From NCBI GenBank assembly GCA_049695975.1, contig JBAVTE010000012.1, positions 71,665 to 135,664 of the forward strand: a DNA stretch of 64,000 nt. Direction: 5' to 3'. The notes below the pieces were generated by a model. That model did no database searches. It saw only the letters and a program-made list of their open reading frames with translations, and was not told the DNA's origin. The translations under genes were made by a program, and so were the position numbers. Source of the DNA: Minisyncoccia bacterium. Lineage in GTDB: Bacteria > Patescibacteriota > Minisyncoccia > Phycocordibacterales > GWA1-40-21. The first letter of the stretch is position 1. Every line of letters begins with the position of its first letter. Below are positions 2,124 to 62,349 of this stretch, one piece after another.

Positions 2124-4719
2124 CTTTAAAATATATCACAAGAAAAGTTTTTTGTCCTGTATATCACTCATATTTTATGATATTATTTTACAAATGATAA
2201 TTAATAAAATAATTCACAATATTTATAGAAAAATAAAGAGAAACTTTAAAAAAATACTCATTTCTTTTGTAATTTTTGCTTTTTTAGTCTGTGGTATTCT
2301 CGCCTTATGGCTATCTACACTTACTATACCAGACATCAGCTCTTTTGAGACAAGAAAAGTAGTCGAGTCCACTAAAATTTACGACAAAACAGGCAAAATA
2401 CTTCTCTATGATGTACATGCAAACGAAAAGAGAACCGCTGTGCCTTTTAATACGATTTCAAGGAATATTAAAAATGCAACTATTGCCATTGAAGACGCAG
2501 AATTTTACAGCCATCCTGGTATTAGAATCACTTCTTTAATCAGGGCAACTCTCGCAAATATATTTTCTGGTGGTTATTCACAGGGAGGATCCACTATTAC
2601 ACAGCAAGTAGTCAAAAACACTTTACTAACCACAGATAAAACATTCTCAAGAAAAATAAAGGAAATATACCTGTCTTTAAAAATAGAAAGGATTTTTTCT
2701 AAAGACCAAATTTTATCTATTTATCTAAATGAAACCCCTTATGGTGGAAACATTTATGGTGTAGAAGAAGCAAGCCGAACATTTTTTGGAAAGAGTTCTT
2801 CGGACTTGTCCATTATAGAGTCAGCATACCTTGCTGCTATACCTCAAGCTCCTACTTTTTATTCGCCTTATGGAAATAATAAAGACAAATTGGACGCAAG
2901 AAAAAATCTCGTCCTCAAAAAAATGTTGGACAGTAAGTTTATAACACAAGAAGAGTACGCCTCGTCAAAAAAAGAAAAAATTACTTTTCAACCAAGGGAT
3001 CCTTACGGTATACTCGCTCCTCATTTTGTTGAATTTGTAAAACAATATTTAGCAAATAAATATGGTGCAACTGCGATAGAAGAAAATGGTTATAAAGTTA
3101 TCACTACACTTGATTATGACATACAAGCAAAAGCAGAAGCGGTCGTTAAAGAATATGCTCTAGAAAACGCAAAAAATTTCAACGCAGAAAATGCAGCCCT
3201 CGTGGCAATAGATCCAAGAAATGGCCAAATACTCGCAATGGTTGGCTCTCGCGACTATTTTGATAAAGTAATAGATGGTCAATTTAATGTAGCAATTGCC
3301 AATAGACAACCTGGATCCACCTTCAAACCTTTTGTATATGCAACTGCTTTTGAAAAAGGATATACACCAGATACAGTTCTTTTTGATATTCCAACAGAAT
3401 TTCAAAGTACCTGTACACCAGAAGGAAAACCTATAGATCCTAGTGGTGACCCTAACCAATGCTATATGCCAGAAGATTATGATGGACTATATTTAGGGCC
3501 AATGACATTAAGAGATGCTCTTGCCCAGTCCAGAAACATTCCATCAATCAAAACTTTATACTTAGCTGGAATAAAAGACTCTCTAAAAACTGCACAAGAT
3601 ATGGGTATTACTACATTATCCAATAACCCAGATCAGTATGGCCTCACGCTCGTACTTGGAGGTGGAGAAGTCTCGCCACTCGACCTTACAAGTGCATATG
3701 GAGTGTTTGCAAACAATGGTATTCGAAACCCTTATGCATCAATAATTTCTATTACAGATAAAAATGGTAACGAAATAGAAAAATATACACCAAGACCAGA
3801 AACAGTACTCGATCAAAATATTTCATCTCATATTTCAGATATACTTTCTGATAATATTGCGCGAACTCCTGCTTACGGAGAAAATTCCCCTCTCTATTTT
3901 CCCGGAAGACCTGTCGCATCAAAAACAGGTACCACAAATGATTACAAAGATGTATGGATTGTGGGCTATACGCCAAGTTTAGTCGTCGGTGCTTGGGCAG
4001 GAAATAATAACAACTCCCCCATGAAAAAGAAGGTAGCGGGCATGATAATTGCTCCGATGTGGAGAGCATTTATGGACAAAGTATTACCAAATATGCCAGT
4101 TGAACACTTCCCAACACCAAGGTCTATAGATCAAAACATCAAACCAATATTACGTGGTTTTTGGCAGGGTAATCAAACATATTTTATAGACAAGATTTCA
4201 GGAAAGCTTGCTACAGATATGACACCAGATGAAACCAAACAAGAAAAATCAATCACAAATATACATTCAATCTTGTATTGGGTAGACAAAAACAATCCCT
4301 TGGGTGGTGCCCCTCAAAATCCCGACAATGATTACCAATTTAGTTTATGGGAATACTCAGTTCAAAAGTGGTTAAGAAATAATCCTATAATTACAAATAC
4401 ACCTCCAACAATGACAGATGATGTGCATACTACAATGAACACTCCACAAGTCATAGTACTCTCTCCGGATGAAACCACTGTCTACAATAAGGACACTAGA
4501 ATAACCGCAATTATTTCTATTAGTTCAAGATATACTCCATTAAAAGCCAATTTTTATGTAAATGGAGAATATATAGGTGAATCACACAATATTCCTTTTA
4601 ATATTTCCTTTGTTCCCAGCGAAATTTCATCCCTACAATCAAAAAATGAATTAAAAATAGATGCATATGACAGTGCATACAATAAAGTAGAAAAAATTAT
4701 TACTTTTAATGTGAATTAA
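2110..4719 (+). CDS. mrcA: class A penicillin-binding protein (PBP1A-type transglycosylase/transpeptidase)
   Basis: Glycosyltransferase motifs (IAIEDAEFYSHPGI, RKIKE), a transpeptidase SxxK-type region and an N-terminal TM helix. The true start is probably the internal Met near 2194, because the annotated start overlaps the tyrS start. Confidence 0.85.
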   Translation: MSIFIFKIYHKKSFLSCISLIFYDIILQMIINKIIHNIYRKIKRNFKKILISFVIFAFLVCGILALWLSTLTIPDISSFETRKVVESTKIYDKTGKILLYDVHANEKRTAVPFNTISRNIKNATIAIEDAEFYSHPGIRITSLIRATLANIFSGGYSQGGSTITQQVVKNTLLTTDKTFSRKIKEIYLSLKIERIFSKDQILSIYLNETPYGGNIYGVEEASRTFFGKSSSDLSIIESAYLAAIPQAPTFYSPYGNNKDKLDARKNLVLKKMLDSKFITQEEYASSKKEKITFQPRDPYGILAPHFVEFVKQYLANKYGATAIEENGYKVITTLDYDIQAKAEAVVKEYALENAKNFNAENAALVAIDPRNGQILAMVGSRDYFDKVIDGQFNVAIANRQPGSTFKPFVYATAFEKGYTPDTVLFDIPTEFQSTCTPEGKPIDPSGDPNQCYMPEDYDGLYLGPMTLRDALAQSRNIPSIKTLYLAGIKDSLKTAQDMGITTLSNNPDQYGLTLVLGGGEVSPLDLTSAYGVFANNGIRNPYASIISITDKNGNEIEKYTPRPETVLDQNISSHISDILSDNIARTPAYGENSPLYFPGRPVASKTGTTNDYKDVWIVGYTPSLVVGAWAGNNNNSPMKKKVAGMIIAPMWRAFMDKVLPNMPVEHFPTPRSIDQNIKPILRGFWQGNQTYFIDKISGKLATDMTPDETKQEKSITNIHSILYWVDKNNPLGGAPQNPDNDYQFSLWEYSVQKWLRNNPIITNTPPTMTDDVHTTMNTPQVIVLSPDETTVYNKDTRITAIISISSRYTPLKANFYVNGEYIGESHNIPFNISFVPSEISSLQSKNELKIDAYDSAYNKVEKIITFNVN

Positions 4720-7638: not shown

Positions 7639-7728
7639 TTATAACCCTATTATATACTGTGAACGCTGTGGACAACAACTTAAATAAGTTAATAAATTGT
7701 GTACAAACTGTTTATTATTTTTTGTTTC

Positions 7729-7848
7729 CCTGCCCCTCTGAAGAAAGTCCTTCTGAACGGCACGGATATTTTTTTGCTAAAAAATTCCTCGTGATCGCGC
7801 CGTCGCGCTCCCAAGTCCGTTCAGAAGGACTTTCTTCAGAGGGGCAGG
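7729..7848. repeat. perfect 32-bp inverted repeat with a 56-nt spacer, in the dnaA-rpmH divergent intergenic region
   Basis: Left arm CCTGCCCCTCTGAAGAAAGTCCTTCTGAACGG at 7729-7760; its exact reverse complement at 7817-7848. The spacer contains the GC-rich 17-mer TCGCGCCGTCGCGCTCC, which also occurs at ~59745. Confidence 0.8.
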
Positions 7849-9235: not shown

Positions 9236-9703
9236 ATGAAAAACGAAGATATAAAAAACATAATAGCAGAGATGATTCAAAAGATGGAGGTTAGCTTCGA
9301 TTCTATTGATGAAGTATTTGATGAAATAACAAAGAAAAATATTTTTGTAATAAGAACAAAGGACTCTGGGCTTCTGATCGGTGAAAATGGTGAAACATTT
9401 AATGCTTTTTTCATGCTTGTCAAAAGGATGGTTGCAAAGAAGGCTCAAAATGAGGAGATACTGTCTTCATTTGCGATTGATATCAATGATTATCACTCAA
9501 GTAAGGTAATAAAACTCAAAAATCAAGCAAATATCTTTGCAAATAGGGCTCGAGATATGAAAGTTAATATAGAAATGGATCCTATGTCTTCATATGAAAG
9601 ACTCATTATACACTCAGCACTCAGTGATCAGCCTAATATTAAGACAGAATCTATAGGAGAAGGTTTGTCTAGGAGGATTGTTATAAAATATATAAAGAGC
9701 TAG
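9236..9703 (+). CDS. jag: Jag/KhpB-like R3H-domain RNA-binding protein
   Basis: C-terminal R3H-like motif (…ERLIIHSALSD…) and its position after yidC. Confidence 0.7.
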   Translation: MKNEDIKNIIAEMIQKMEVSFDSIDEVFDEITKKNIFVIRTKDSGLLIGENGETFNAFFMLVKRMVAKKAQNEEILSSFAIDINDYHSSKVIKLKNQANIFANRARDMKVNIEMDPMSSYERLIIHSALSDQPNIKTESIGEGLSRRIVIKYIKS

Positions 9704-9831
9704 GTCATAAAAACAGGAGAGTAATGTTTCTTTTATGAACATTGCGCAGGCCGACGGGCCGAGCATAGCAAAAATCTAGCAAGATTTTATGCGCGTTCAG
9801 AAAAGGAATATTACTTTCCTGTTTTTTAATT

Positions 9832-11082
9832 TTAGTTTCCTGCTGGAGAAATTTTAAACTCCCAGAGAGACAAATCTTTTTTGTTTATAAAAATAATGTA
9901 ATTATCTTTTGCGCTTATGACAGGATCGCTTACATCTACGCTTTCATTATCTTTTGTCTGATATAAAAGGGTGGTGGTTTTGTCTGCTGTATTTATTTCC
10001 CAAAAATCATCAGAGAAAGACGCAGAACCGTTGTACCATGCATCGGGGAAGAGACCACTTGGCATGCTTTTAGGTACTGCACAATATACAATATTTGAGC
10101 TCATTTTGCTCCACACACATTTATCAGCAAATGTGCTCAGAGATAAAGAGGAGTCAATATCTTTCTCGATATCCATATATCCAAGTGTTGGTCTTCCTCT
10201 TACATTTTTAGAAAACAAAACACTGTTTCCGTTGTTCCCTACTAGAGTTGTAAGACCATATATATCTCCTGTGACTTGTTCCAAACTTCCGTCTGAAGTA
10301 TTTAAGTCAAATAAAAATCCTTGCATATAGTAACTAGGTTTCGTCAACAAAGACACGGTATTGTCCCCTACCCAACTTGCACTCCAATTTTTTAATTCGG
10401 AAGTAAAGACTTGTTTTTTGCTCGTTCCATCTATATTTCCTGTAAAACCTGCAGAACCACTATCGGTTTCTAATAAGTAAAATATTTTAGAAGAATTTTT
10501 ATTTATTGCAATCGTTTTAATATTTTCTGGTAAGAAGGACCCAGAAATAATTCCCGCAAATTCATTTGAGGTAGAAGCATAGAGAGTGATTTTTGCGGAA
10601 TAAGTTGCTATTTTTTCAGTTTTATCTTTGATGTATCTTAGTAAGACATTTGTACCTGTTTTATCAAAGAGTGCCTCATATATTTTAGGTATAGTGGTGT
10701 TGGTAATTCTTGTAATTTGGCTTGAACCAAAGCTTATTTCATGAATATTGCCATTACTTCTTTCTACCAGTCGTACTTTTTCATTTGGATACACTCCAAA
10801 TATTGTAGCCCCTGCTACTGGTTCCTGGAAAATTTGTTTTAGTCCCAATTCGTTTGCTGTATTGTTTGTGGTAGTGCTAGTAGGTGTACTCGTATCTCCA
10901 AAATTGGCGGTATTTGTATTGGTTTTGTCTACCGAAGTATCACCAAAACCATTTTGTGTCTGGGTTGTATTGTCTACAGGTACATTAGTGTTTGTATTTG
11001 TCCTAAAATAAAAGAAAAGGAATGTTATTAAAATAACGATTGTTATTCCAAGTATTAAAATGATTGCTTTTTTCTTTTCCAT
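9832..11082 (-). CDS. membrane-anchored secreted hypothetical protein (T4SS-like cluster, distal gene)
   Basis: N-terminal TM helix, a T/N-rich linker, then a ~300-aa globular domain. Last gene of the minus-strand cluster. Confidence 0.4.
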   Translation of the reverse strand: MEKKKAIILILGITIVILITFLFFYFRTNTNTNVPVDNTTQTQNGFGDTSVDKTNTNTANFGDTSTPTSTTTNNTANELGLKQIFQEPVAGATIFGVYPNEKVRLVERSNGNIHEISFGSSQITRITNTTIPKIYEALFDKTGTNVLLRYIKDKTEKIATYSAKITLYASTSNEFAGIISGSFLPENIKTIAINKNSSKIFYLLETDSGSAGFTGNIDGTSKKQVFTSELKNWSASWVGDNTVSLLTKPSYYMQGFLFDLNTSDGSLEQVTGDIYGLTTLVGNNGNSVLFSKNVRGRPTLGYMDIEKDIDSSLSLSTFADKCVWSKMSSNIVYCAVPKSMPSGLFPDAWYNGSASFSDDFWEINTADKTTTLLYQTKDNESVDVSDPVISAKDNYIIFINKKDLSLWEFKISPAGN

Positions 11083-27174: not shown

Positions 27175-27188
27175 AGGTACTTTAAAAC

Positions 27189-27215
27189 CCATGTCAAGGA
27201 CGGTCCTTGACATGG
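27189..27215. repeat. REP-like palindrome copy 1 (CCATGTCAAGGAC G GTCCTTGACATGG)
   Basis: Two perfect 13-nt arms around a single central G, lying 26 nt upstream of the Y1-transposase ORF. Confidence 0.85.
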
Positions 27216-27240: not shown

Positions 27241-27933
27241 ATGCAAAGAAATATAGTACTTTCAGTTGGTGAATATTATCATATATACAGTCGTGGAGTT
27301 GAAAAAAGAAAAATTTTTCTTAATGAAAGAGATTATGAAAGATTTACAATTTTAATTTACTTATGCAACTCTGAAAAAGTGGTACACGTAAGCGATCATA
27401 AAGAAAAAAAATTAATAGAGTTTTTTGGTTTAGAGAAGGGTAAGAATCTTGTTGATATTGGTGCGTATTGTCTTATGCCCAATCATTTTCATTTATTGCT
27501 TAAAGAAAAAATTGAGGGGGGTATTACCCTTTTTATGAAAAAGCTTCTTACTGGGTATTCAATGTATTTTAATAAAAAATATAATAGAACAGGGCCTCTT
27601 TTTGAGGGGAGATTTAAAGCAAAACATTTGAATTATGATCAATATCTTAAATACCAGTTTACATATATTCATCTTAATCCTATAGGAATTATTGATAATG
27701 GTTGGAAAAACAAAGAAATCAGTAATGTTGAAAGAGGATTGAAATTTCTACAAGATTATAAATATTCAAGTTTTTTGGATTATTCTAGGGGAGAAAGGAT
27801 AACTGGTAAAATATTAAATAAGGGTTCCTTTCCAGAATATTTTCAAAATAAAATTGAGTTTTCTGATATGGTAAAAGAATGGATGAACTTTGAAAAAGAC
27901 GATGTCAAGGACGGTCCTTGCGAAGTTGTGTGA
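27241..27933 (+). CDS. IS200/IS605-like Y1 (HUH) transposase, REP-associated tyrosine transposase (RAYT)-like
   Basis: HxH motif NHFHLLL, conserved Tyr-containing C-terminal half and a Transposase_17-like N-terminus (YHIYSRG). Flanked on both sides by the same palindrome. Confidence 0.7.
   Translation: MQRNIVLSVGEYYHIYSRGVEKRKIFLNERDYERFTILIYLCNSEKVVHVSDHKEKKLIEFFGLEKGKNLVDIGAYCLMPNHFHLLLKEKIEGGITLFMKKLLTGYSMYFNKKYNRTGPLFEGRFKAKHLNYDQYLKYQFTYIHLNPIGIIDNGWKNKEISNVERGLKFLQDYKYSSFLDYSRGERITGKILNKGSFPEYFQNKIEFSDMVKEWMNFEKDDVKDGPCEVV
27902..27920. repeat. REP-like palindrome copy 2 (19-nt core ATGTCAAGGACGGTCCTTG)
   Basis: Identical 19-mer. It lies in the convergent overlap of the transposase 3' end and the rsmA 3' end, and encodes …LRKDRP* of RsmA. 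Confidence 0.85.
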
Positions 27934-28708
27934 CTAGCCCCATCCATTTTTCTAGAGATAGGTCTTCAGCCCTAATTTTTTCTGATATTTTGCAATCAAT
28001 AAAAATCTGTTGCAGATTTTTATTTGGGAATTCTTTTTTTAGATTTCCCAAAAGCATTTTTCTTTTGCTGGAGAAACCTAGTTTTATGATTTCAAAAAAT
28101 TGTTCTTCCTCGATACTATTTTCAGTAAATAATTTTTTTGAAATATTTGAAATTTGTAAAACGGCAGAATCAACATTTGGTGAAGGTTGAAAACTTCCCC
28201 TACTCACTTTCATTATTATTTCTGGACTCCCATAGACCTTTACGCTGATAGAAAGTATGCTTTCCTTTCCATCATTTGCTACTATTCTATCAGCAATTTC
28301 TTTTTGGACCATCACAATAATTTCTGAAGGCTGGTAATCCGTTTCCAAAAACTTTCTTAAAAATTGTCCTGTTATGTAGTATGGTATGTTTGCGATGATT
28401 TTGTATTTACCAATGTCAAGGACGGTCCTTGGGGTAGATAAAATATCCCCTTCTATTAGTTCAAATTTTTTATTTTTTATTTCTTTTGAAAACTTTTCTT
28501 TTAAAATCTCTATTAAACGGTGGTCTTTTTCCACAGCAATTACCTTGCATCCTTTTTCCAGGAGTTTTTCTGTGAGGGCACCTTCCCCAGGTCCGACTTC
28601 TAGGACAATATCACTTGCAGAGATATCTCCTGTATCAGCAATTTTTTGCAAAACTCCATCGTTTTTCAAAAAATTTTGTCCCAATGATTTTTTTGCTTGT
28701 ATAGTCAT
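27905..28708 (-). CDS. rsmA: 16S rRNA (adenine1518/1519-N6)-dimethyltransferase RsmA/KsgA
   Basis: SAM-binding motif VLEVGPGEGALT and the NIPYYIT motif, at the length typical of KsgA. It contains an in-frame copy of the REP-like 19-mer at 28413-28431, encoding PRTVLDIG. Confidence 0.85.
   Translation of the reverse strand: MTIQAKKSLGQNFLKNDGVLQKIADTGDISASDIVLEVGPGEGALTEKLLEKGCKVIAVEKDHRLIEILKEKFSKEIKNKKFELIEGDILSTPRTVLDIGKYKIIANIPYYITGQFLRKFLETDYQPSEIIVMVQKEIADRIVANDGKESILSISVKVYGSPEIIMKVSRGSFQPSPNVDSAVLQISNISKKLFTENSIEEEQFFEIIKLGFSSKRKMLLGNLKKEFPNKNLQQIFIDCKISEKIRAEDLSLEKWMGLVTQLRKDRP
28413..28431. repeat. REP-like palindrome copy 3, embedded in-frame within the rsmA coding sequence
   Basis: The 19-nt ATGTCAAGGACGGTCCTTG is identical to copies 1 and 2. 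On the minus strand it translates as P-R-T-V-L-D-I-G in the variable region between the GD.L and N(L/I)PY motifs of KsgA. Confidence 0.85.
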
Positions 28709-32114: not shown

Positions 32115-32247
32115 AAAAACAAAATTTTCGTAGCAAAGTGCTTTTGAACATCCTTGGGAGTCGCGACTGGAGACGGACAGAGAAAATTTTTTGCAAAAAA
32201 TTTTCGTGATGGTCAAAAGCATTTTGTGGAGGGAGTTTTTGTTTCAG
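32115..32247 (+). repeat. MITE-like element B1 (palindrome-embedded repeat, family B)
   Basis: ~80-nt core CTTTTGAACATCCTTGGGAGTCGCGACTGGAGACGGACAGAGAAAATTTTTTGCAAAAAATTTTCGTGATGGTCAAAAG, about 90% identical to B2 and B3, set inside its own flanking inverted repeat. Lies between the convergent lysM-M23 gene and comM. Confidence 0.7.
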
Positions 32248-36229: not shown

Positions 36230-36300
36230 CGCGGGCGTAGTTTAACGGTAGAACTAGTCCTTGCCAAGGATTGGGTTCGGGTTCGATTCCCGGCGCCCGC
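36230..36300 (+). tRNA. tRNA-Gly (anticodon GCC)
   Basis: Acceptor GCGGGCG/CGCCCGC, anticodon loop TTGCCAA, T-loop TTCGATT. TATAAT at 36211-36216 upstream and a terminator hairpin downstream. Confidence 0.8.
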
Positions 36301-36301
36301 A

Positions 36302-36339
36302 CAATTAGAAAACCTCCCTTTTGGGAGGTTTTCTAATTG
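36302..36339 (+). terminator. rho-independent terminator after tRNA-Gly
   Basis: Hairpin CAATTAGAAAACCTCCC-TTTT-GGGAGGTTTTCTAATTG. Confidence 0.7.
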
Positions 36340-36991
36340 TGCAAAAGAAAATGCAAATTTATTTGCATTCGTCCGGGAATCAAACGGCTGAGTAATGTTT
36401 TTTAAAAAGAAAATATACGAATGAGTTGGTATCCAGACAAAGTTTGTCAGTGAAACTTTAGTCGAGAGAGTTTTTACCACGCTCGCAGTCAACCTAATAC
36501 TGAATTTTCCTAAAAGCCACCAAAAATTAAAAGGACAAATAATAAACATAAGTAAAGGAACTTGCCAATCCCCTGTTTTGGGAAACGCTTATTATATAGA
36601 GCTGCTTTTGTGAAACATGTGGATAACTGTGTGAATATGTTGATTAAAGACAGATTGTGGTTTGTCTAAGAATGTGACGAAATTTTCTGAGTCTTTTACA
36701 AAATATGCCTATAAATATGAGGTATTTCATTAAAGACCCGTCCTAGTAATGTCCTTATTTTGTAGTATTACTTTGTCAATAGGTCGATTATATAAATGAA
36801 GTGTTTCTAAGTAACATTTTATACAAATGTTACACATGAAATGAAATTCGTAATTTTTAGCTAAAAAATATACACAATTCTTTCATTTTAAATATTTTTT
36901 GAATTTTTCATTAATATACTCAAATATTGCGAACATTTGATGTGTTCTTGTGTATTTATGATATTTATATATAATATATTCATTAATTGGG

Positions 36992-37405: not shown

Positions 37406-37798
37406 GATCTCCGGAGGCGAAGCCTTCGTAAGAAAATTAATTTTCCAACAAAAAACCGCCTGAAACAAATTGGTTCAGGCGGCGAAAGCGAACGCTGAGC
37501 AAGACATCATTTCTGCATCTACGCCCCGAGAGACATAAGTGTCCCCAAATATAGAGGCAAATGCATTGAGCACAAAATAAGATCTAACTAAGCAAACCTT
37601 TCTGAGGTTGTACACACCTCTTGGAAAGAACAATCGTGGTCATAATGGTGATAAGGAGATTTGATTTGAGTTACAAAATACAATCACCTAACGACCTCTA
37701 CCTGCTATTATACTATTTTAATAAAAGACATGTAAAGGACACACCTGTGGATAACTATTTATTATGAAACGTCCTTTAGAAATATATTATTAATTTGC

Positions 37799-40737: not shown

Positions 40738-40880
40738 ACAATCAGCAAACTCCGCTCACAAGAGCGGATTTGTTTTTAGTGTTATAATGTAAAAGGTCGA
40801 TCTCATTAGAAACCTCGAAAATTAAAAATTTTCTATTTCTAACGGGATGAAAGTTTTTAATAATTTAATAATATTTTAAT

Positions 40881-41393: not shown

Positions 41394-41659
41394 AAAAAAA
41401 ACAGCCCGCCTAAGGCGAGCTGTTTTTTGTATTGACTTTAATCTTTAGGCAAAATCATTGCACAAAAAATCTTAAATAAATATAGATATATTAATTCCAA
41501 AATATAGTAAACTAAACAAATTTTTAAACTTATGCTAAGATTAAAGACGAAAAATCATCAGATGATTTTTCGTCTTTAATAGTTTTATTAATATGATTTG
41601 CCTCTGAATATGCAGTTTGTCCGCTCTTTGCGGGTAATCTGAAATTTAGGGACAAATCT

Positions 41660-41791
41660 AATCCCGTTAGAGATAGATGAATTTTTTTGCAACAAAAAAA
41701 TTCATCGTAGAGAACCCACGTTCTCAATTTAACAGGATTTATCAGGTAATCAGATTAAGTGCCAATTCATAACACTTTAATCTCTAACGGG
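41660..41791 (+). promoter_or_regulatory. conserved structured 5' leader element, copy L1 (upstream of pnp)
   Basis: Begins AATCCCGTTAGAGATAG, contains two internal perfect hairpins, and ends …CAGATTAAGTGCCAATTCATAACACTTTAATCTCTAACGGG immediately before the ATG. The 5' 14 nt are the exact reverse complement of the 3' 14 nt (ATCTCTAACGGGAT), which includes the A and U of the start codon. Copies L2 and L3 are at 48302-48425 and 61153-61275. Confidence 0.6.
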
Positions 41792-43909
41792 ATGCATAAG
41801 AAAGAATTTTCGACAGAGTTTGGAGGTAGGACACTTACTGCGGAGTTTAGTGATCTCGCAGAAAACGCGCATGGTTCAGTACTTTTGAAATATGGAAACA
41901 CAATGGTTTTTGCCACGGCTGTTATTTCAAAAGAACCAAAGTTGGGGGGAGACTATCTGCCTCTCACCGTCGATTATGAAGAAAAGTTTTATGCAAGCGG
42001 TCAGATTCTTGGAAGTAGATTTATGAAAAGAGAAGGTAAACCATCGGACGAAGCTATTTTGACTGGAAGAATTGTAGATAGAACTATTCGTCCACTTTTT
42101 GATCAGTGGATTAGACACGAAATACAAGTGGTGGTCACCGTACTTTCTCTAGACACAGATGATCCAGACATACTTTCTGTTATTGCAGCATCTCTTGCGG
42201 TTTCCGTTTCCAAAATTCCATTTCATGGACCTGTCAGCGCCACAAGAGTTGGTAAACACAAACTTGATGGTTTTCAAATAAATCCGTCATATATTGAAAG
42301 AGAAAATGAAAATTATGAAATCGATCTTATTGCCTGTGGAAAAGATGGAAATATCAATATGATAGAACTTGGTGGAGATGAAGCCCAGGAGTCAGTCGTT
42401 GTGGAAGGTCTTAATCTTGCATCAATAGAAATAGAAAAAATAAATGAGTGGCAAAAGAAAATTATTTCTGAAATTGGTGAAAAAAAGATTTCACTTCCTG
42501 CTCCGGTAATGCCAGAAACTGTGTCCAAACTTTTTTCAGATAAAATTGAGCCAAAGCTCGAAAGTTTTGTAATGAGTGGAATTCCAGGCGGGTCAAAAAT
42601 AGGCGAAATAATGTCGGAGTGGATGAATCTAGCCGAGAAAAATTTTCCGGAAGATGTGCATTTTGCTGAACATTTATTTGAAGAAAAAGTAGATGCAATG
42701 ATTCATGATCAGGCATTGAAAAATAACAAGAGAGCAGATGGTAGAGGAATTGATGATTTGCGACCTCTTTTTGCACAAGCGGGTGGAGTCTCTCCAATAC
42801 TTCATGGTTCAGGAATCTTTTATAGAGGAGGAACGCACATTTTGACGACACTTACCCTCGGTGGACCAAGTGATGCACAAATAATAGATGGAATGGAAGA
42901 AAGTAATAATGCAAAAAGATTTATGCACCATTACAATTTCCCTCCATATTCAACTGGCGAGACAGGAAAAATGGGTGGAACAAATAGAAGAATGATAGGC
43001 CATGGCGCACTCGCTGAAAAAGCTCTTTTGCCAATGATTCCTTCTAATAGCGTTTTTCCTTACACAATTCGTCTAGTATCTGAAGCATTTTCTTCAAACG
43101 GTTCAACTTCAATGGGTTCTGTTTGTGGATCTACTCTTGCTCTCATGGACGGAGGTGTGCCAATCAAGAAACCGGTAGCTGGAATTGCTTCAGGATTAAT
43201 GATGGATGAAAAAGGAAATTATAAAGTTCTCACAGATATTCAAGGCCCCGAGGATCATTATGGTGATATGGATTTTAAAGTTGCGGGGACAAAAGATGGA
43301 GTTACTGCTATTCAAATGGATGTAAAAGTCAGTGGTGTTCCTGTAAATATTCTCGCCGAGGCCTTTGAAAAAGCAAAAATTGCACGACTCAAAATTCTCG
43401 ATGTGATTTTGAAAGCTATTGCTGAACCAAGAAAAGATATTTCAGCAAACGCACCAAAAATTTTAGTAATAAAAATTAAACCGGATCAGATTGGTGGAGT
43501 GATTGGTTCTGGGGGAAAAGTTATTAAAGAAATTAAAGAAAAAACTGGTGCTGATATCGATATTGAAGATGATGGCACTGTGTATTGTACCGGCAAAGAC
43601 GGTTCGGCAGAAAAGGCCAAGTTGATTATTGAAGCTATGACTCATGAATACAAGGCAGGAGAAAGATACGAGGGAATTGTAACAAAAACCACCGATTTTG
43701 GTGCTTTTGTGAAAATTGGGATGGGTGATACAGAAGGCCTTGTACATGTTTCAGAAATTGCACCTTTTAGAGTAGATAATGTCAGCACGATTTTGAAAGA
43801 AGGAGACAAAGTACCAGTCGTTGTAAAAGGTATAGATGAAAGAGGACGTATTAGTCTTTCTATTAAACTAGCTGATTCAGAATGGGCACAAAAGAAGTTG
43901 GGAAAATAA
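41792..43909 (+). CDS. pnp: polynucleotide phosphorylase
   Basis: Two RNase PH domains, KH and S1 domains at the C-terminus. The ORF-track start (GTG at 41759, giving MPIHNTLISNGM) lies inside the shared leader. The start is more likely the ATG at 41792 (MHKKEFSTEF…). Confidence 0.9.
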   Translation: MHKKEFSTEFGGRTLTAEFSDLAENAHGSVLLKYGNTMVFATAVISKEPKLGGDYLPLTVDYEEKFYASGQILGSRFMKREGKPSDEAILTGRIVDRTIRPLFDQWIRHEIQVVVTVLSLDTDDPDILSVIAASLAVSVSKIPFHGPVSATRVGKHKLDGFQINPSYIERENENYEIDLIACGKDGNINMIELGGDEAQESVVVEGLNLASIEIEKINEWQKKIISEIGEKKISLPAPVMPETVSKLFSDKIEPKLESFVMSGIPGGSKIGEIMSEWMNLAEKNFPEDVHFAEHLFEEKVDAMIHDQALKNNKRADGRGIDDLRPLFAQAGGVSPILHGSGIFYRGGTHILTTLTLGGPSDAQIIDGMEESNNAKRFMHHYNFPPYSTGETGKMGGTNRRMIGHGALAEKALLPMIPSNSVFPYTIRLVSEAFSSNGSTSMGSVCGSTLALMDGGVPIKKPVAGIASGLMMDEKGNYKVLTDIQGPEDHYGDMDFKVAGTKDGVTAIQMDVKVSGVPVNILAEAFEKAKIARLKILDVILKAIAEPRKDISANAPKILVIKIKPDQIGGVIGSGGKVIKEIKEKTGADIDIEDDGTVYCTGKDGSAEKAKLIIEAMTHEYKAGERYEGIVTKTTDFGAFVKIGMGDTEGLVHVSEIAPFRVDNVSTILKEGDKVPVVVKGIDERGRISLSIKLADSEWAQKKLGK

Positions 43910-47955: not shown

Positions 47956-48020
47956 AAAAAAAGAATCGGGGTGTTTAAATTTTAAGGTTCTTAAAATTTA
48001 AACACCCCGATTCTTTTTTT
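47956..48020. terminator. long perfect palindrome (29-bp arms, 5-nt loop) between convergent response-regulator gene and hup
   Basis: AAAAAAGAATCGGGGTGTTTAAATTTTAA-GGTTC-TTAAAATTTAAACACCCCGATTCTTTTTT. The arm sequence resembles the palindrome at 259-351 (…GTATTTAAATTTT…). Confidence 0.6.
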
Positions 48021-48028
48021 AGTAATTA

Positions 48029-48301
48029 CTATCGAACTGCCTCTTTCAAGGCCTTTGCTGCTCTAAATTTTGGAACTTTCATAGCTGGAACGGAGATTGA
48101 TTCTCCTGTTCTTGGGTTTCTGGCTTGTCTGGCGGCTCTCTGTTTGACAGAGAAGATACCGAGACCTGCAATAGAAACATCTTCGCCTTTCTTTAAACCA
48201 CCGACAATTGTATCAATAACTATATCCACGACTTGCTCTGACTGAACTTTTGTTCCATTAAGCAATTTATTTACTGCCTCTGCAATTGATTGTTTATTCA
48301 T
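48029..48301 (-). CDS. hup: DNA-binding protein HU
   Basis: MNKQSIAEAVNKLLNGTKVQSEQVV…RNPRTGESISVPAMKVPKFRAAKALKEAV is a typical 90-aa HU. The ORF-track start (48334, MPIHNTLISNGM…) lies inside the shared leader copy L2. Confidence 0.85.
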   Translation of the reverse strand: MNKQSIAEAVNKLLNGTKVQSEQVVDIVIDTIVGGLKKGEDVSIAGLGIFSVKQRAARQARNPRTGESISVPAMKVPKFRAAKALKEAVR

Positions 48302-48425
48302 CCCGTTAGAGATTAAAGTGTTATGAATTGGCACTTAATCTGGTTAAAAAATAAATCCTGTTAAATCTCGAGAAGTTGTATTCTCTTCGGAAACAATCTG
48401 ATCGTTTCCTATCTCTAACGGGATT
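48302..48425 (-). promoter_or_regulatory. conserved structured 5' leader element, copy L2 (upstream of hup, minus strand)
   Basis: The minus-strand sequence AATCCCGTTAGAGATAG…ATTTAACAGGATTTAT…CAGATTAAGTGCCAATTCATAACACTTTAATCTCTAACGGG-ATG is identical to L1 over the last ~45 nt and the first 17 nt. Its internal hairpins differ from L1 but remain hairpins. Confidence 0.6.
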
Positions 48426-51192: not shown

Positions 51193-51333
51193 AAAAAAGA
51201 CCGAGAAAACTTATAACAAAACGCTTTTGTCCGTCACGAAAATTTTTTACTAAAAATCTTCTCTGTCCGTCGCCAGTCGCAACTTCCAAGGACGTTCGAA
51301 AGCGTTTTGTTATAAGTTTTCTCGGTCTTTTTT
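51193..51333 (-). repeat. MITE-like element B3 (family B core in reverse orientation inside a 33-bp perfect inverted repeat)
   Basis: Flanking AAAAGACCGAGAAAACTTATAACAAAACGCTTT…AAAGCGTTTTGTTATAAGTTTTCTCGGTCTTTT. The reverse-complemented core matches B1 and B2 (TTCGAACGTCCTTGGAAGTTGCGACTGGCGACGGACAGAGAAGATTTTTAG…). Lies between convergent thrH and clpP. Confidence 0.7.
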
Positions 51334-51904
51334 AAATCACCTTATCAATAATTCCGTATTTTTTGGCTTCTTCGGCGGACATATAGTAGTCGCGGTCGGC
51401 GTCTTTTTCTATTTGGGCTACGGGCTTCCCGGTATTATCTGCCATTATTTTGTTTAATTTGGCTTTTAATTTTACAATTTGTTTTGCAGTGATTTCAATA
51501 TCGGTGGCTTGTCCTTGTGCACCACCCATTGGCTGGTGGATCATTATTTCAGAGTTTGGTAGAGAAAATCTCTTTCCTTTTTTACCAGCTGAGAGTAAAA
51601 GTGCTGCTGCTGATGCTGCCATACCTACGCAAACAGTAGAAACATCATTTTTTACATGGTGCATTGTGTCTAGAATTGCAAGAGCTGCGGAAACTGATCC
51701 CCCAGGAGAATTTATATAAAGCTGAATATCTTTTTTGGAATTTTCAAATTGCAAGAAGAGAAGCTGTGCAATTACAATATTTGCAGTTTCATCATCTATT
51801 GGACCACCGAGAAAAATAATATTTTCTTTTAGAAGCCTCGAATAAATATCAAAAGCTCTTTCGCCAAACTGACTTTTTTCTATGACTGTGGGTATTAAAT
51901 TCAT
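51332..51904 (-). CDS. clpP: ATP-dependent Clp protease proteolytic subunit
   Basis: Catalytic-triad context (…[14 protein letters not shown]…MIHQPMGG…). The likely start is the internal Met MNLIPTV…; the ORF extends to 51991. Confidence 0.9.
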
Positions 51905-52009
51905 ACTTATAGAATATAACAATGTTATATTAAAATCAAATTTTCGTAATTCAAAGTTAAATGAAAAGGCGCTCTTGTGTTTGAAACACAAGAGCGCCTT
52001 GATTTGACT

Positions 52010-57351: not shown

Positions 57352-58240
57352 ACTTCCAGAAGTAGAAACTACTTGCAGAATTTTGGATAAAAAAATAAAA
57401 AATCTTTTTATAGAAGATGTTTGGACAGATTACCGTGGAAAATCTGCGAAATATTCTTTGGGAATAAAAGATTCAGAATATTTTTATAATTTTAAAAAAG
57501 AAATCATCAATAAGAAAATCCTCGGTGTGGAGAGAAGAGCAAAAAATGTTTTGATAAAACTTTCGGAAGGAAACACTGTTTTGATTCATATGAAAATGAC
57601 GGGGCATCTTTTGTATGGTGAATATGATTTTTTAAATAAAAAATGGTCGCCAAAAGAGGGCGGTGCATTGAAAGATCCATACAATAGATTTGTCCATTTA
57701 GTTTTTTCTTTGTCTGATGGAAAGAAACTTGTACTTTCCGATGCGAGAAAGTTTGCAAAGATTTTACTTCTAGAAAGAGAAAAATGCGAGGAAGAATTTT
57801 GTGAAACAGGACCAGAACCCCTAAATAAAAGTTTTTCTTACAAGATTTTTACAGAACGGATTAATAAAAGACCAAAAAGTAAAATAAAAACTGTTTTAAT
57901 GGATCAAAATGTAATTGCTGGGATAGGAAATATCTATTCCGATGAAATTTTATGGACTTCCTCCGTGCATCCAGAAAAAATAGTAAAAAATCTTTCAGAA
58001 AAGCAAAAGAAAGAAATTTATAAAAATATAAGAATTATTTTAGAAAAATCCATTAAACTCGGCGGGGATTCAATGTCTGATTATCGCAATCCGTATGGTG
58101 AAAAGGGGAGATTTCAAGATTTTCATAAGGTTTACAGAAAGACCGGAGAAAAATGTGTAAAAAAGGGCTGTTCGGGAATTATTAAAAGAATTATCGTGGG
58201 TGGTAGGAGCACCCATTTCTGCCCAGTGCATCAAGTTTAA
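57344..58240 (+). CDS. mutM: formamidopyrimidine-DNA glycosylase
   Basis: N-terminal MPELPEVET, an H2TH region and a C-terminal zinc finger (C…C…CPVHQ). Confidence 0.85.
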   Translation: MPELPEVETTCRILDKKIKNLFIEDVWTDYRGKSAKYSLGIKDSEYFYNFKKEIINKKILGVERRAKNVLIKLSEGNTVLIHMKMTGHLLYGEYDFLNKKWSPKEGGALKDPYNRFVHLVFSLSDGKKLVLSDARKFAKILLLEREKCEEEFCETGPEPLNKSFSYKIFTERINKRPKSKIKTVLMDQNVIAGIGNIYSDEILWTSSVHPEKIVKNLSEKQKKEIYKNIRIILEKSIKLGGDSMSDYRNPYGEKGRFQDFHKVYRKTGEKCVKKGCSGIIKRIIVGGRSTHFCPVHQV

Positions 58241-58251
58241 AAAATAACTAT

Positions 58252-58384
58252 AAAAAACAAAAACCTCGTAACAAAGTACTTTTGAACGTCCTTGGAAGTC
58301 GCGACTGGCGACGGACAGAGAAAATTTTTAGCAAAAAATTTTCGTGATGGTCAAAAGTATTTTATGGAGAGGTTTTTGTTTTTT
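58252..58384 (+). repeat. MITE-like element B2 (family B)
   Basis: Core CTTTTGAACGTCCTTGGAAGTCGCGACTGGCGACGGACAGAGAAAATTTTTAGCAAAAAATTTTCGTGATGGTCAAAAG inside the inverted repeat AAAAAACAAAAACCTC…GAGGTTTTTGTTTTTT. Lies between convergent mutM and ruvA. Confidence 0.7.
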
Positions 58385-58394
58385 ATAGTTGTTT

Positions 58395-58964
58395 TTACTT
58401 ACCAAGAATCTTAAGTGCCTCTTTTATTTTCTTGCCAGTTTCCTTGTGTTCATCACCCACTTTTTTTAAAGCATCTCTGGCCTCATCATGTGAATATCCG
58501 AGAGTTTTTAGTGCCTCGAGTGCATCGGATTCTTCTTTGAGTCCTTCATAGTCTCCAGCTTCTCCAATAATTTTATCTTTAAGTTCTAAAACAATTTTAT
58601 CGGCCATCTTTTTACCCATGCCAGAAATTTTGACAAGTGGTCCCACTTCTCCAGTCTTGATAGCCCTCTTTAAGCCATCTACGGTGGCCATGCTCATTAT
58701 GCCCAGAGCTGTTTTTGGACCAATTCCGGAAATAGTGATAAGTAATTCAAAAAAGTCCAAATCTTCTTTTTCTAGAAAACCATAAAGTGTCTGTGCATCT
58801 TCTCGGACAGCGAAGTGAGTCCAAAGAGAAATTTCAACCCCAACTTTTTTATTCTGATGTGACACTTCTGTTGGCACAAAAATTTTATAACCGATGCCAT
58901 TTGTTTCCACTACTATGAATTTTTCTGATAAAAAAATTATTTTTCCAGTAATCTTTGTAATCAT
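58395..58964 (-). CDS. ruvA: Holliday junction DNA helicase RuvA
   Basis: MITKITGKIIFLSEKFIVVETNGIGYKIFVP… with HhH motifs. Confidence 0.85.
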   Translation of the reverse strand: MITKITGKIIFLSEKFIVVETNGIGYKIFVPTEVSHQNKKVGVEISLWTHFAVREDAQTLYGFLEKEDLDFFELLITISGIGPKTALGIMSMATVDGLKRAIKTGEVGPLVKISGMGKKMADKIVLELKDKIIGEAGDYEGLKEESDALEALKTLGYSHDEARDALKKVGDEHKETGKKIKEALKILGK

Positions 58965-59583: not shown

Positions 59584-59655
59584 TCCCCCCGCCAGGAATC
59601 GAACCTGGATTTCTTCCTTCGCAGGGAAGTGTCCTATCCATTGAACGACGAGGGG
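59584..59655 (-). tRNA. tRNA-Arg (anticodon reads GCG by hand)
   Basis: The reverse complement gives acceptor CCCCTCG/CGGGGGG with one G-U pair, D-stem GTTC/GGAC, anticodon stem CTTCC/GGAAG with loop CTGCGAA, and T-arm CCAGG-TTCGATT-CCTGG. Confidence 0.65.
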
Positions 59656-61152: not shown

Positions 61153-61275
61153 ATCCCTTTAGAGATAGAAACAATCAGATTGATTACGTAAAATTAATCA
61201 AATAATAAAATTTAATAACAATAATTTAATAAATAGATTAAGGTGGTAATTCATAACACATTAATCTCTAACGGG
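61153..61275 (+). promoter_or_regulatory. conserved structured 5' leader element, copy L3 (upstream of capA-like gene)
   Basis: ATCCCTTTAGAGATAG…AAACAATCAGATTG…TAGATTAAGGTGGTAATTCATAACACATTAATCTCTAACGGG-ATG. The 3' 30 nt are nearly identical to L1 and L2, and the 5' end has one mismatch. Confidence 0.55.
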
Positions 61276-62349
61276 ATGGAAAAAGGTTTTTTAAAAAAAT
61301 TATCGGCAATGATTTTGGAGGGTTTTGTCCTCGCGTTTTTTATTTTTGCTTTTGTACAAATGCCGTCTGAATTATTGTCTATTTGGCAAAATTTAAAAGA
61401 TAGAAAATTGAGTATAGAAGAAATAAATATATTAAATAAAAATATTTCTTCTGTTATTGAGTCTCGGAACTTTGCCGAAATAACAAAATCCAATGAAACC
61501 ACCTTGGCTTTTGTCGGGGATATAATGCTTGATAGAGGTGTCTATTCTAAATTTATAAAAAATGGTAATGGTGATTATTATTTTCCCTTTGCAAAAATAA
61601 AAGATGATTTGGCTAAGTATGATCTAGTCTTTGGAAATCTTGAAGGGCCTATGTCAGACAAGGGGCAAGATTCGCACAACCTGTATTCTTTTGAGATGGA
61701 TCCAAATTTTGCACCAGTATTGCGAGATATTGGTTTCAAGGTTTTGTCTATTGCAAATAACCACATAGATAATTGGGGAAAAATAGCGATGGAGGATACT
61801 TTTTCTAGACTAAAAGAAAATAGAATAATTGTTTCAGGCGGAGGAATGAATGAAAGCGAAGCGTATGGTGTAAATGTCATAAATGTTGATGGAAATAAAA
61901 TTGCGATTTTATCTTTTAGTCAGTTTGGCGCAGGACAATATAGTGCGACAGCAAGCTCTTCTGGAATTGCTATCCTAGATCAGAAAAAAGTTGAAGAAAG
62001 TGTAAAAATGGCTAGAAACATGGCTGATATTGTGGTGGTGTCGTTTCACTTTGGGGAAGAATACAAAAATATACCTAACGATTTTCAGAAAAAATGGGCG
62101 AAGATTGTAGTGGATGTGGGTGCGGATCTCGTCGTTGGCGGACATCCTCATGTGGTGGAGCCAGTAGAACAATACAGGAATGTTTTTATTGCGTATAGTT
62201 TAGGAAATTTTGTTTTCGATCAGTATTTTTCTCCAGAAACAATGTCGGGAGGTCTTCTTGAAGTAAAAATAAAAGATAAAAAAATTATTTCAGTAAATTT
62301 AAGAAAAATCCAGATGAATAGCGAATATCAGCCGGAACTTGTGGAATAG
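61276..62349 (+). CDS. capA: CapA/PgsA-family (PGA_cap) metallophosphatase-like protein
   Basis: …LAFVGDIMLDRG…NLEGP…ANNH…GGHPH…SLGNFVFDQ… The likely start is MEKGFLKK…, after the leader; the ORF-track start is at 61243. Confidence 0.7.
   Translation: MEKGFLKKLSAMILEGFVLAFFIFAFVQMPSELLSIWQNLKDRKLSIEEINILNKNISSVIESRNFAEITKSNETTLAFVGDIMLDRGVYSKFIKNGNGDYYFPFAKIKDDLAKYDLVFGNLEGPMSDKGQDSHNLYSFEMDPNFAPVLRDIGFKVLSIANNHIDNWGKIAMEDTFSRLKENRIIVSGGGMNESEAYGVNVINVDGNKIAILSFSQFGAGQYSATASSSGIAILDQKKVEESVKMARNMADIVVVSFHFGEEYKNIPNDFQKKWAKIVVDVGADLVVGGHPHVVEPVEQYRNVFIAYSLGNFVFDQYFSPETMSGGLLEVKIKDKKIISVNLRKIQMNSEYQPELVE

Follow-up and report, generated by a model that had tools for sequence, protein, structure and literature searches.

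Bacterial MITEs with RNA structure include the Correia, ERIC, RUP and bcr1 elements, and REPs carry a conserved GTAG/CTAC end. Elements derived from IS200/IS605 have differing left and right ends, each with a subterminal hairpin on the same strand, and insert 3' of a fixed tetra- or pentanucleotide. In integron attC sites, conserved R''/L''...L'/R' boxes lie at the base of a hairpin with a variable centre. The REP/BIME/REPIN sequences of Proteobacteria, mobilised by RAYT Y1 transposases, are extragenic palindromes found in multiple copies at the ends of genes, commonly between convergent ones, and REPs are transcribed as 3'-UTR hairpins. Between genes they serve as terminators and mRNA stabilisers, with locations that vary between strains (10.64898/2026.03.23.713779), and they are hot spots for other elements (PMC1525189). 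MITEs in bacteria (reviewed in PMC10969869 and PMC3184786) are small non-coding elements of 100-200 nt with inverted-repeat ends and long hairpins, which are co-transcribed with their neighbours and polymorphic between strains. Template switching creates or perfects hairpin stems and inverts the spacer between inverted repeats (PMC8794818, PMC8604942), and the HMP-PP riboswitch has its aptamer inside an intrinsic terminator hairpin (PMC6478431).

The repeat described here, Family B, was found in 64,000 nt of DNA from a Minisyncoccia bacterium (hereafter the window, meaning the whole stretch analysed). It is a genuine family of structured hairpin repeats in Minisyncoccia (Patescibacteria), not described before, and is unusual in that a conserved branched apex is carried on stems that are free in sequence and often perfect. 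Searching the literature for its core strings, and for RAYT or REPIN in connection with CPR bacteria, yielded nothing relevant. We hold with about even confidence that Family B is a REP/MITE-like mobile structured hairpin repeat, non-autonomous and used as a bidirectional terminator.

Like REPs, Family B consists of multi-copy extragenic palindromes at gene ends, and the window contains a weakly RAYT-like Y1 gene. However, a REP is a hairpin of ~35 nt conserved throughout, whereas Family B conserves only a 56-nt branched apex and leaves its stem free. Its density also differs, at about one copy per 10-20 kb of sequence sampled. REPs and REPINs are short palindromes conserved over their whole length in very many copies, with a RAYT gene flanked by the same dispersed REP; the window has five copies of Family B in 64 kb, on unrelated stems, and the repeats beside its Y1 gene are not Family B. 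The resemblance to MITEs covers the features given above, with co-transcription presumed, but Family B has no visible target-site duplication, its flanks are self-complementary rather than direct repeats, and its similarity boundaries are nested.

A conserved branched apex in five copies

In all copies and relatives, the conserved unit of Family B is a three-way-junction apex of ~56 nt capping a long stem, P1; a first-pass annotation of this DNA had proposed a core of ~80 nt, which is longer than the unit common to distant relatives. The apex runs, in order, J1/2 (CUUGGRAG), P2, J2/3 (GGACAGA), P3 and J3/1 (GUG). P2 has 4-5 GC pairs and a GACUG or GACG loop, and P3 has about 10 AU pairs and an AGCA loop, while the sequence of P1 is free and unrelated from one subfamily to another.

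The three copies first reported are all present, and all three lie between convergent genes, as had been claimed. Copy c1 (32115..32247, + strand; apex 32153-32208) is located between the stop codons of an M23 peptidase (32112) and a ComM-type ATPase (32255). Copy c2 (51193..51333; apex 51235-51290) is inverted, with its sense on the minus strand, between the stops of a HAD hydrolase (51188) and ClpP (51332-51334). Copy c3 (58252-58384, + strand; apex 58291-58346) sits within a palindrome (58240..58396) that extends to both adjacent stop codons (Fpg TAA 58238-58240; RuvA TTA 58395-58397). The identity of about 90% reported for their core is close to what we measure, with 88% between c1 and c3 across 130 nt and 86% complementarity of c2 to each of them across 97-103 nt. 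The sub-features named at the time (GTCGCGACTGGCGAC, GAAAATTTTT(T/A)GCAAAAAATTTTC and CTTTTGAAC...GGTCAAAAG) were also all found. A window scan with the core 22-mer, allowing up to three mismatches, hits exactly c1, c2 and c3, where shuffles expect 0.00.

Three copies turned out to be an undercount. A covariance model built from seven sequences and run with filters off finds exactly five in the window, namely c1 (111 bits), c2 (107 bits), c3 (108.6 bits) and two more diverged copies. C4 (7729..7848, - strand; apex 7761-7816) belongs to a diverged subfamily and has a 32-bp perfect stem; it had earlier been spotted by eye at 7729-7848 and is scored by the model at 7740-7837 (-) with 80 bits. C5 (9709..9826, + strand; apex 9741-9794) is the most diverged, with a P2 of GGCC-GACG-GGCC and the P3 loop AGCA, and scores 42 bits (E 2.6e-9) at 9719-9816 (+). 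Its convergent neighbours are a Jag/KhpB-like gene, with its stop at 9703, and a 416-aa gene, whose stop is at 9832.

Could these be ordinary intrinsic terminators, alike by convergence or low complexity, with no true repeat family behind them? Gene-end copies do have A/T tracts, and this AT-rich genome is full of hairpin terminators. However, plain palindromes in the window score ~20 bits on both strands, whereas Family B copies reach 42-111 bits, and on a single strand; the 22-mer has three matches with none expected; and the GC-rich junction sequence is conserved in other genomes. We regard convergence as almost certainly the wrong explanation.

The fold is supported by covariation. Among 11 distinct copies, pairing holds in 89.7% of cells, and both sides have changed in 20 of the 29 pairs; none of 500 shuffles matched the observed values, and slid partners were 43-59% paired. 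P3 is 100% paired in these 11 copies, with six covarying pairs, and compensatory changes are found in each of P1, P2 and P3. P2, for instance, occurs as UCGC/GCGA, GCGC/GCGC, GGCC/GGCC and GGCU/AGCC, and two copies in one relative (L031), ~95% alike by eye, differ in P2 by a compensatory swap (GCGC/GCGC vs GGCT/AGCC). In 11/11 copies the same strand is the more stable, by 4-14 kcal/mol, and has more G-U pairs. In c1 the sense strand folds at -42.3 and the antisense at -31.2 kcal/mol; in C5, whose 32-bp outer stem has 3 G-U pairs, the values are -58.7 and -42.6 kcal/mol. This asymmetry, with G-U pairs on one strand, is expected for an element acting as RNA or as one single DNA strand. Hence the fallback reading offered in the first-pass annotation, a structured RNA with covarying stems, is strongly supported by the compensatory changes in all three helices and the shared strand preference.

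At gathering threshold, Rfam 15 finds six tRNAs in the window and nothing else. For the c3 region, searching by E-value gave nothing but generic models of long-hairpin plant microRNAs, with scores of 26-30 bits (gathering 74-211), with no ribozyme or riboswitch families among the matches. The HMP-PP riboswitch similarly houses conserved nucleotides in an intrinsic terminator hairpin. However, it is a single-copy 5'-UTR element of one gene class, whereas Family B is multi-copy, mostly at 3' ends and with no consistent gene, and the Rfam search showed no similarity between them. We also rejected hammerhead, ZTP-like (GACUGGCG) and DNA-uptake sequence candidates, for which the defining motifs did not fit or Rfam gave no match, as well as attC sites. 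Family B is the reverse of an attC site, with a conserved centre and a variable base, and by direct reading has no RYYYAAC/GTTRRRY pair at its base.

Outer stems, palindromes and the Y1 gene

The outer palindromes are perfect over 33, 32, 28, 22 and 20 bp and, in most copies, are locus-specific and limited by stop codons; the inverted-repeat arms flanking copies measure 43 nt at 93% and 51 nt at 84%. Family B had been described as the centre of a long, perfect inverted repeat that differs everywhere. The long flanking repeats are real, with perfect runs of 33 bp (c2) and 19-20 bp (c3) in the folds, but perfection and uniqueness do not hold throughout. The outer stem of c1 is weak, imperfect and contains G-U pairs, and it is common to c3; indeed c1, c3 and the copy in L024 (probably the same genome) have the same A-rich/T-rich outer stem (AAAAACAAAA...TTTTGTTTTT), which puts the length of the duplicated unit there at ~130 nt. 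The c2 stem (~33 bp, perfect, with A/T tracts) is unrelated to c1 and c3 in its outer part. Inner, shared stem segments contain G-U pairs and internal loops.

Similarity between copies ends at nested limits, of 56, about 105 and about 130-140 nt. At one site common to two relatives (L027 and L031), the same element has different outer pairs (about 8 vs 15 perfect bp), indicating that the outermost pairs are young. Template-switch hairpins (PMC8794818, PMC8604942) are alike in their perfect long stems, multi-base compensatory changes, spacer inversion and asymmetric pair frequencies, and template switching would also account for the opposite core orientation in L005 and L024. It is, however, a mutational process and not an element, and leaves the conserved apex and its spread to new loci and genomes unexplained.

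The first-pass annotation instead proposed that the core was inserted into the centre of a pre-existing palindrome, as IS200/IS605-type elements mobilised by a Y1 transposase might do. Spelled out, an element of ~56-130 nt would insert, as single-stranded DNA and via a hairpin-recognising Y1/RAYT-type enzyme, into the apex of older host palindromic terminators. Such insertion would fit the presence of the same core on at least five unrelated stems (window B, window C4, L027/L031, L034, L001 and L006) and the nesting of units, in which a locus-specific outer stem encloses a shared A/U-tract unit, which in turn encloses the core. It would also fit the abundance of hairpin-only perfect terminators of the same style, the short hairpins in L031 that have a B-type P1 and no three-way junction, the RAYT-like Y1 gene in the window, and another palindrome family whose stem carries either a short or a long apex. 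On the other hand, five compact empty orthologous sites, with spacers of 2, 3, 4 or 17 nt or overlapping genes, lack the outer palindrome or any other. Reading by eye a 40-nt spacer at a sixth empty site, and the 48 nt upstream of dnaA in L027, we saw no obvious palindrome. Nor did we see a hairpin-only allele with the outer stem of a filled allele, and the outer stem common to c1, c3 and L024 also speaks against the idea. Insertion into a pre-existing palindrome was thus not borne out, given these empty sites and the partly shared stem. At least one empty site is a secondary deletion (see the RNase J tree below), however, so the empty sites cannot give the direction of insertion.

The other palindrome family just mentioned, Family A (245-367 and 47956-48020), has a common inner stem, G(Y)GT(W)TTTAAATTTT(R)AG, and different outer pairs, and its apex on that stem is 3 nt in one member and 37 nt in the other. 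Palindromes at 259-351 and 47956-48020 had been taken for empty targets of Family B, but they share this inner stem module of their own and hence belong to a third palindromic family.

The candidate enzyme, the protein at 27241-27933, has a Y1_Tnp domain (PF01797 at 32 bits) and is closest to REP-associated tyrosine transposases, although its score (NF047646 at 37.4 bits) is below the family cut-off of 80, and the hairpin flanking its gene (CATGTCAAGGACGGTCCTTGACATG) is unrelated to Family B. With a weak family match and different hairpin repeats beside the gene, we rejected a link between this transposase and Family B. The palindrome-associated elements derived from IS200/IS605 are alike in being hairpin-dependent and strand-asymmetric, in lacking target-site duplications and in having a Y1 gene in the genome. 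However, Family B lacks their end anatomy: it is one symmetric hairpin, with P2 and P3 adjacent and central inside one stem rather than subterminal, and it has no constant flanking motif or target tetranucleotide. The evidence therefore goes against mobilisation of the IS200/IS605 type. Apex insertion by some other route, for which the nesting of modules and the abundance of hairpin-only terminators leave room, we judge improbable.

Around the Y1 gene, a stretch of 1.3 kb contains three occurrences of a 19-nt string (ATGTCAAGGACGGTCCTTG; 27184-27209, 27895-27920 and 28406-28431), and a weaker one is found at 37723-37748. The first, immediately upstream of the gene, forms a perfect hairpin of 12 bp, the second is in the gene's 3' end, and the third is inside a KsgA methyltransferase gene, where it encodes the VLDIG motif. 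These repeats have one 8-mer in common with Family B and are otherwise unrelated to it.

The window contains further repeats. Three genes have a near-identical start, GTGCCAATTCATAACAC.TTAATCTCTAACGGGATG (41727-41799, 48294-48366 inverted, and 61243-61283), two of them also with ~30 nt upstream in common (73 nt at 92%), and related TCTAACGGGATG strings are found at 40824-40866 and 41643-41685; together they mark a conserved module at 5' ends of genes. A perfect 33-nt direct repeat (59391-59423/59565-59597) overlaps the end of a tRNA gene (59584-59655), and a 101-nt repeat at 85% (54796-54896/59408-59508) connects the neighbourhoods of two tRNA genes. These tRNA-adjoining repeats resemble attachment sites left by an integrated element.

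Gain, loss and homogenisation among relatives

Exact-pattern scans recovered one real locus (a MAG) and one chance match in coding sequence from genome contigs, and three distinct real sequences (L001 = L003 = L004; L005; L006) and the chance match L007 from metagenome contigs. Three viral-contig hits (L008-L010) were rejected as chance matches only. RuvA and DnaA of the window are identical to proteins of a Minisyncoccia MAG. Logan contigs of run SRR28012095 carry the window DNA, and L024 comes from the same sample as the window.

Family B shows presence/absence differences at six orthologous sites, among relatives with 77-91% DnaA or 73-90% RNase J identity, with ambiguous polarity at some. 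At the RuvA/Fpg junction, which has c3 in the window, L013 has a plain 14-bp terminator and L012 an unrelated 426-nt insert; neither has Family B, and the RuvA identities of these relatives are 85% and 82%. The L012 insert (2599-3024) is GC-rich, with a ~100-aa ORF on the minus strand and a GC hairpin of its own, making this site a hot spot for other insertions too.

At the 3' end of RNase J, L005 has both Family B (sense) and an unrelated hairpin repeat, Family C, while L024 has B in antisense, L026 a partial antisense B, and L025 a plain 23-bp palindrome; in ten loci (L014-L023) the spacer is 2 nt. The RNase J tree is ((L005,L014),L024),(L025,L026), and as the outgroup L026 has a copy, the state in L014 is a secondary deletion. 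Some absences are thus clearly losses, which weighs against reading each difference as mobility. The copy has been held at the same site and in the same orientation in L024 and L026 over about 75% RNase J identity, which is more like a functional RNA that has been kept than like a selfish repeat. The MFS transporter gene is in the opposite orientation in L025 relative to L014 and L005, with palindromic elements on both sides in L005; palindromic hairpins may mediate single-gene inversions such as this one.

The remaining sites are just as variable. On the 5' side of dnaA, the window has C4, L027 (with a DnaA 91% identical to the window's and no C4) has 48 unrelated bases, L031 a short hairpin with a B-type stem and no junction, and L033 Family C. 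The Jag/416-aa junction has C5 in the window, but C5 is absent from both L027, where the genes overlap, and L031, which has a 14-bp hairpin. At the 3' end of tyrS, Family C is found in the window, C4-type B in L027 and L031, and a 17-nt spacer with no palindrome in L033. The junction of an 84-aa gene and a PBP gene has B in L031, Family C in L034, 3 nt in the window, 40 nt in L027 and overlapping genes in L033. The density of Family B also varies sharply among close relatives, from 0 copies in 22 kb of L014 to three elements in 4.8 kb of L005.

A consensus DnaA box (TTATCCACA) is conserved just past the tyrS 3' element in the window (about 640-660, AAGTTATCCACAGTTTT), L027, L031 and L033. The dnaA-rpmH spacer (7640-7720) has boxes TGTCCACA and TGTACACA, ~5 kb from the tyrS-side box, and the origin region may be split into two parts.

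Family C occurs at 681-922 in the window, at 672-860 and 2232-2460 in L005, partially at 1-40 in L033, and at about 13680-13840 in L034. Its branched core of ~170 nt, TTTCGAACG.T.TAGCGTAGCA to ATGATTTTCTAGATTGCG.AGCT.TTAGTGAGAAA, lies within a locus-specific long palindrome, the same architecture as Family B. The + strand folds better (-112 vs -96 kcal/mol), and Rfam gave no match. In other genomes Family C is found at the gene-end sites of Family B. In these comparisons, copies come and go at permissive gene-end sites that two unrelated hairpin families both use, with gains and losses of Family B at orthologous sites among genomes that have 83-91% DnaA identity. Four of the Logan short-read contigs (L011, L024, L026 and L033) break off within a copy of Family B or C, and short-read assemblies of these genomes are fragmented by the repeats.

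The mobility and polymorphism foreseen for Family B are supported by these many differences at orthologous sites. For Family B we found neither a transposase nor a target-site duplication, nor any donor/empty pair whose junction is clean, and "mobile" hence rests on comparative presence and absence. No direct target-site duplication was seen at c1-c3, C4, C5, L005 or L031, where the flanks are reverse-complementary all the way to the stop codons; nor did we see, in ~450 kb of sequence, a parent insertion sequence sharing the ends of Family B. P1 and the outer stems do provide the terminal inverted repeats of a MITE, although this is trivially true of any hairpin.

Copies within a genome also appear to be homogenised. 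L031 and L032 differ at 7 positions in 17,101 nt, all seven within the tyrS copy, and all seven turn this copy into the sequence of that genome's other copy. This is either gene conversion or an assembly chimera, of which the k=141 contigs make the latter less likely. Among C4-type cores, identity is 93-100% (86-89% for the P2 variant L031a), compared with 74-85% for the dnaA DNA of the same genomes, and their P1 stems are unrelated. Such high conservation could reflect selection instead of recent spread. However, P3 varies freely between subfamilies, and its identity within a subfamily therefore points to a recent common origin, by spread or conversion, and not to constraint alone.

Terminators, functional RNA and consequences

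Hairpins c1-c3 fill their spacers practically from stop codon to stop codon, and direct reading shows A and T tracts on both sides of c1, c2, c3 and C5, which consequently look like bidirectional terminators with an enlarged apex. The usual terminator style of the window genome is a hairpin-only perfect stem of 16-31 bp with A/T tracts. A pattern scan, scoring loops of up to 8 nt only, counts 24 terminator-like sites where 8.8 are expected. Hairpin-only perfect terminators are found at 47956-48020, 36299-36342, 41540-41580 and 51966-52000, as well as in L025 (6063-6112) and L031 (7989-8016). Judging from this context, Family B hairpins probably act as terminators and 3'-UTR hairpins.

If Family B is a mobile terminator repeat, its long stem and flanking A/U tracts would form, in the transcript, a (bidirectional) intrinsic terminator and a hairpin protecting the 3' end, like E. 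coli REPs, and the conserved apex would be what the copying or binding factor recognises. New copies would arise by copy-and-paste of a unit that already has its stem and A/U tracts (~130 nt in the window genome, ~140 nt in L031). The perfect, locus-specific outermost pairs would then be young, with template switching during replication adding or perfecting them on the spot, and deletion would remove whole hairpins. Three copies fit this scheme poorly. C4 has no U-tract after it and lies between the rpmH start/promoter region and a DnaA-box/dnaA promoter region. The L006 copy (19 nt upstream of a start codon) and the L001 copy (beside but apart from a separate terminator) have no flanking A/T tracts and are not terminator-embedded.

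Alternatively, the copies may be selected functional RNA genes or cis-elements (a protein-binding RNA, ribozyme or ligand sensor) that are multiplied by ordinary duplication and are not mobile. P1 would in this case need only be a helix, and would hence drift by covariation and template switching. The three covarying helices, the conserved junctions and loops and the consistent strand asymmetry all fit such a role, as do the vertical retention of the copy after RNase J in L024 and L026, the positions of the L006 and L001 copies just described, and a core better conserved than dnaA. It is harder to reconcile with the frequent gains and losses between close relatives, or with the replacement of B by the unrelated Family C at the same four sites, which suggests a generic hairpin role or permissive landing sites. 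Furthermore, the region between divergent promoters that holds C4 is apparently untranscribed, the copies share no consistent gene association, and a P3 that is identical within subfamilies but free between them indicates recent common origin rather than constraint. We consider a family of non-mobile functional RNAs rather unlikely.

A bolder proposal, which we also think unlikely, is that the 56-nt junction module is a new self-propagating element, moving between hairpins and between Minisyncoccia genera. It would either seek out terminator apices or make its own palindromic flanks (e.g. by fold-back/template-switch synthesis), without a known type of transposase. The conserved loops and junctions would then either be recognised by an enzyme not yet described or form a new catalytic RNA.

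The genomes of Patescibacteria (CPR) are tiny and have few regulators, and we know of almost no described non-coding RNA or repeat biology in them. Family B, together with at least one sister family, makes up most of the intergenic DNA at several gene ends; it turns over faster than the surrounding genes and is conserved better than dnaA. If the elements are terminators and 3'-UTR stabilisers, these organisms could use them to adjust expression cheaply while their genes stay unchanged. Should the apex mark a new mobility mechanism or RNA-protein system, Family B would represent a new class of mobile element.
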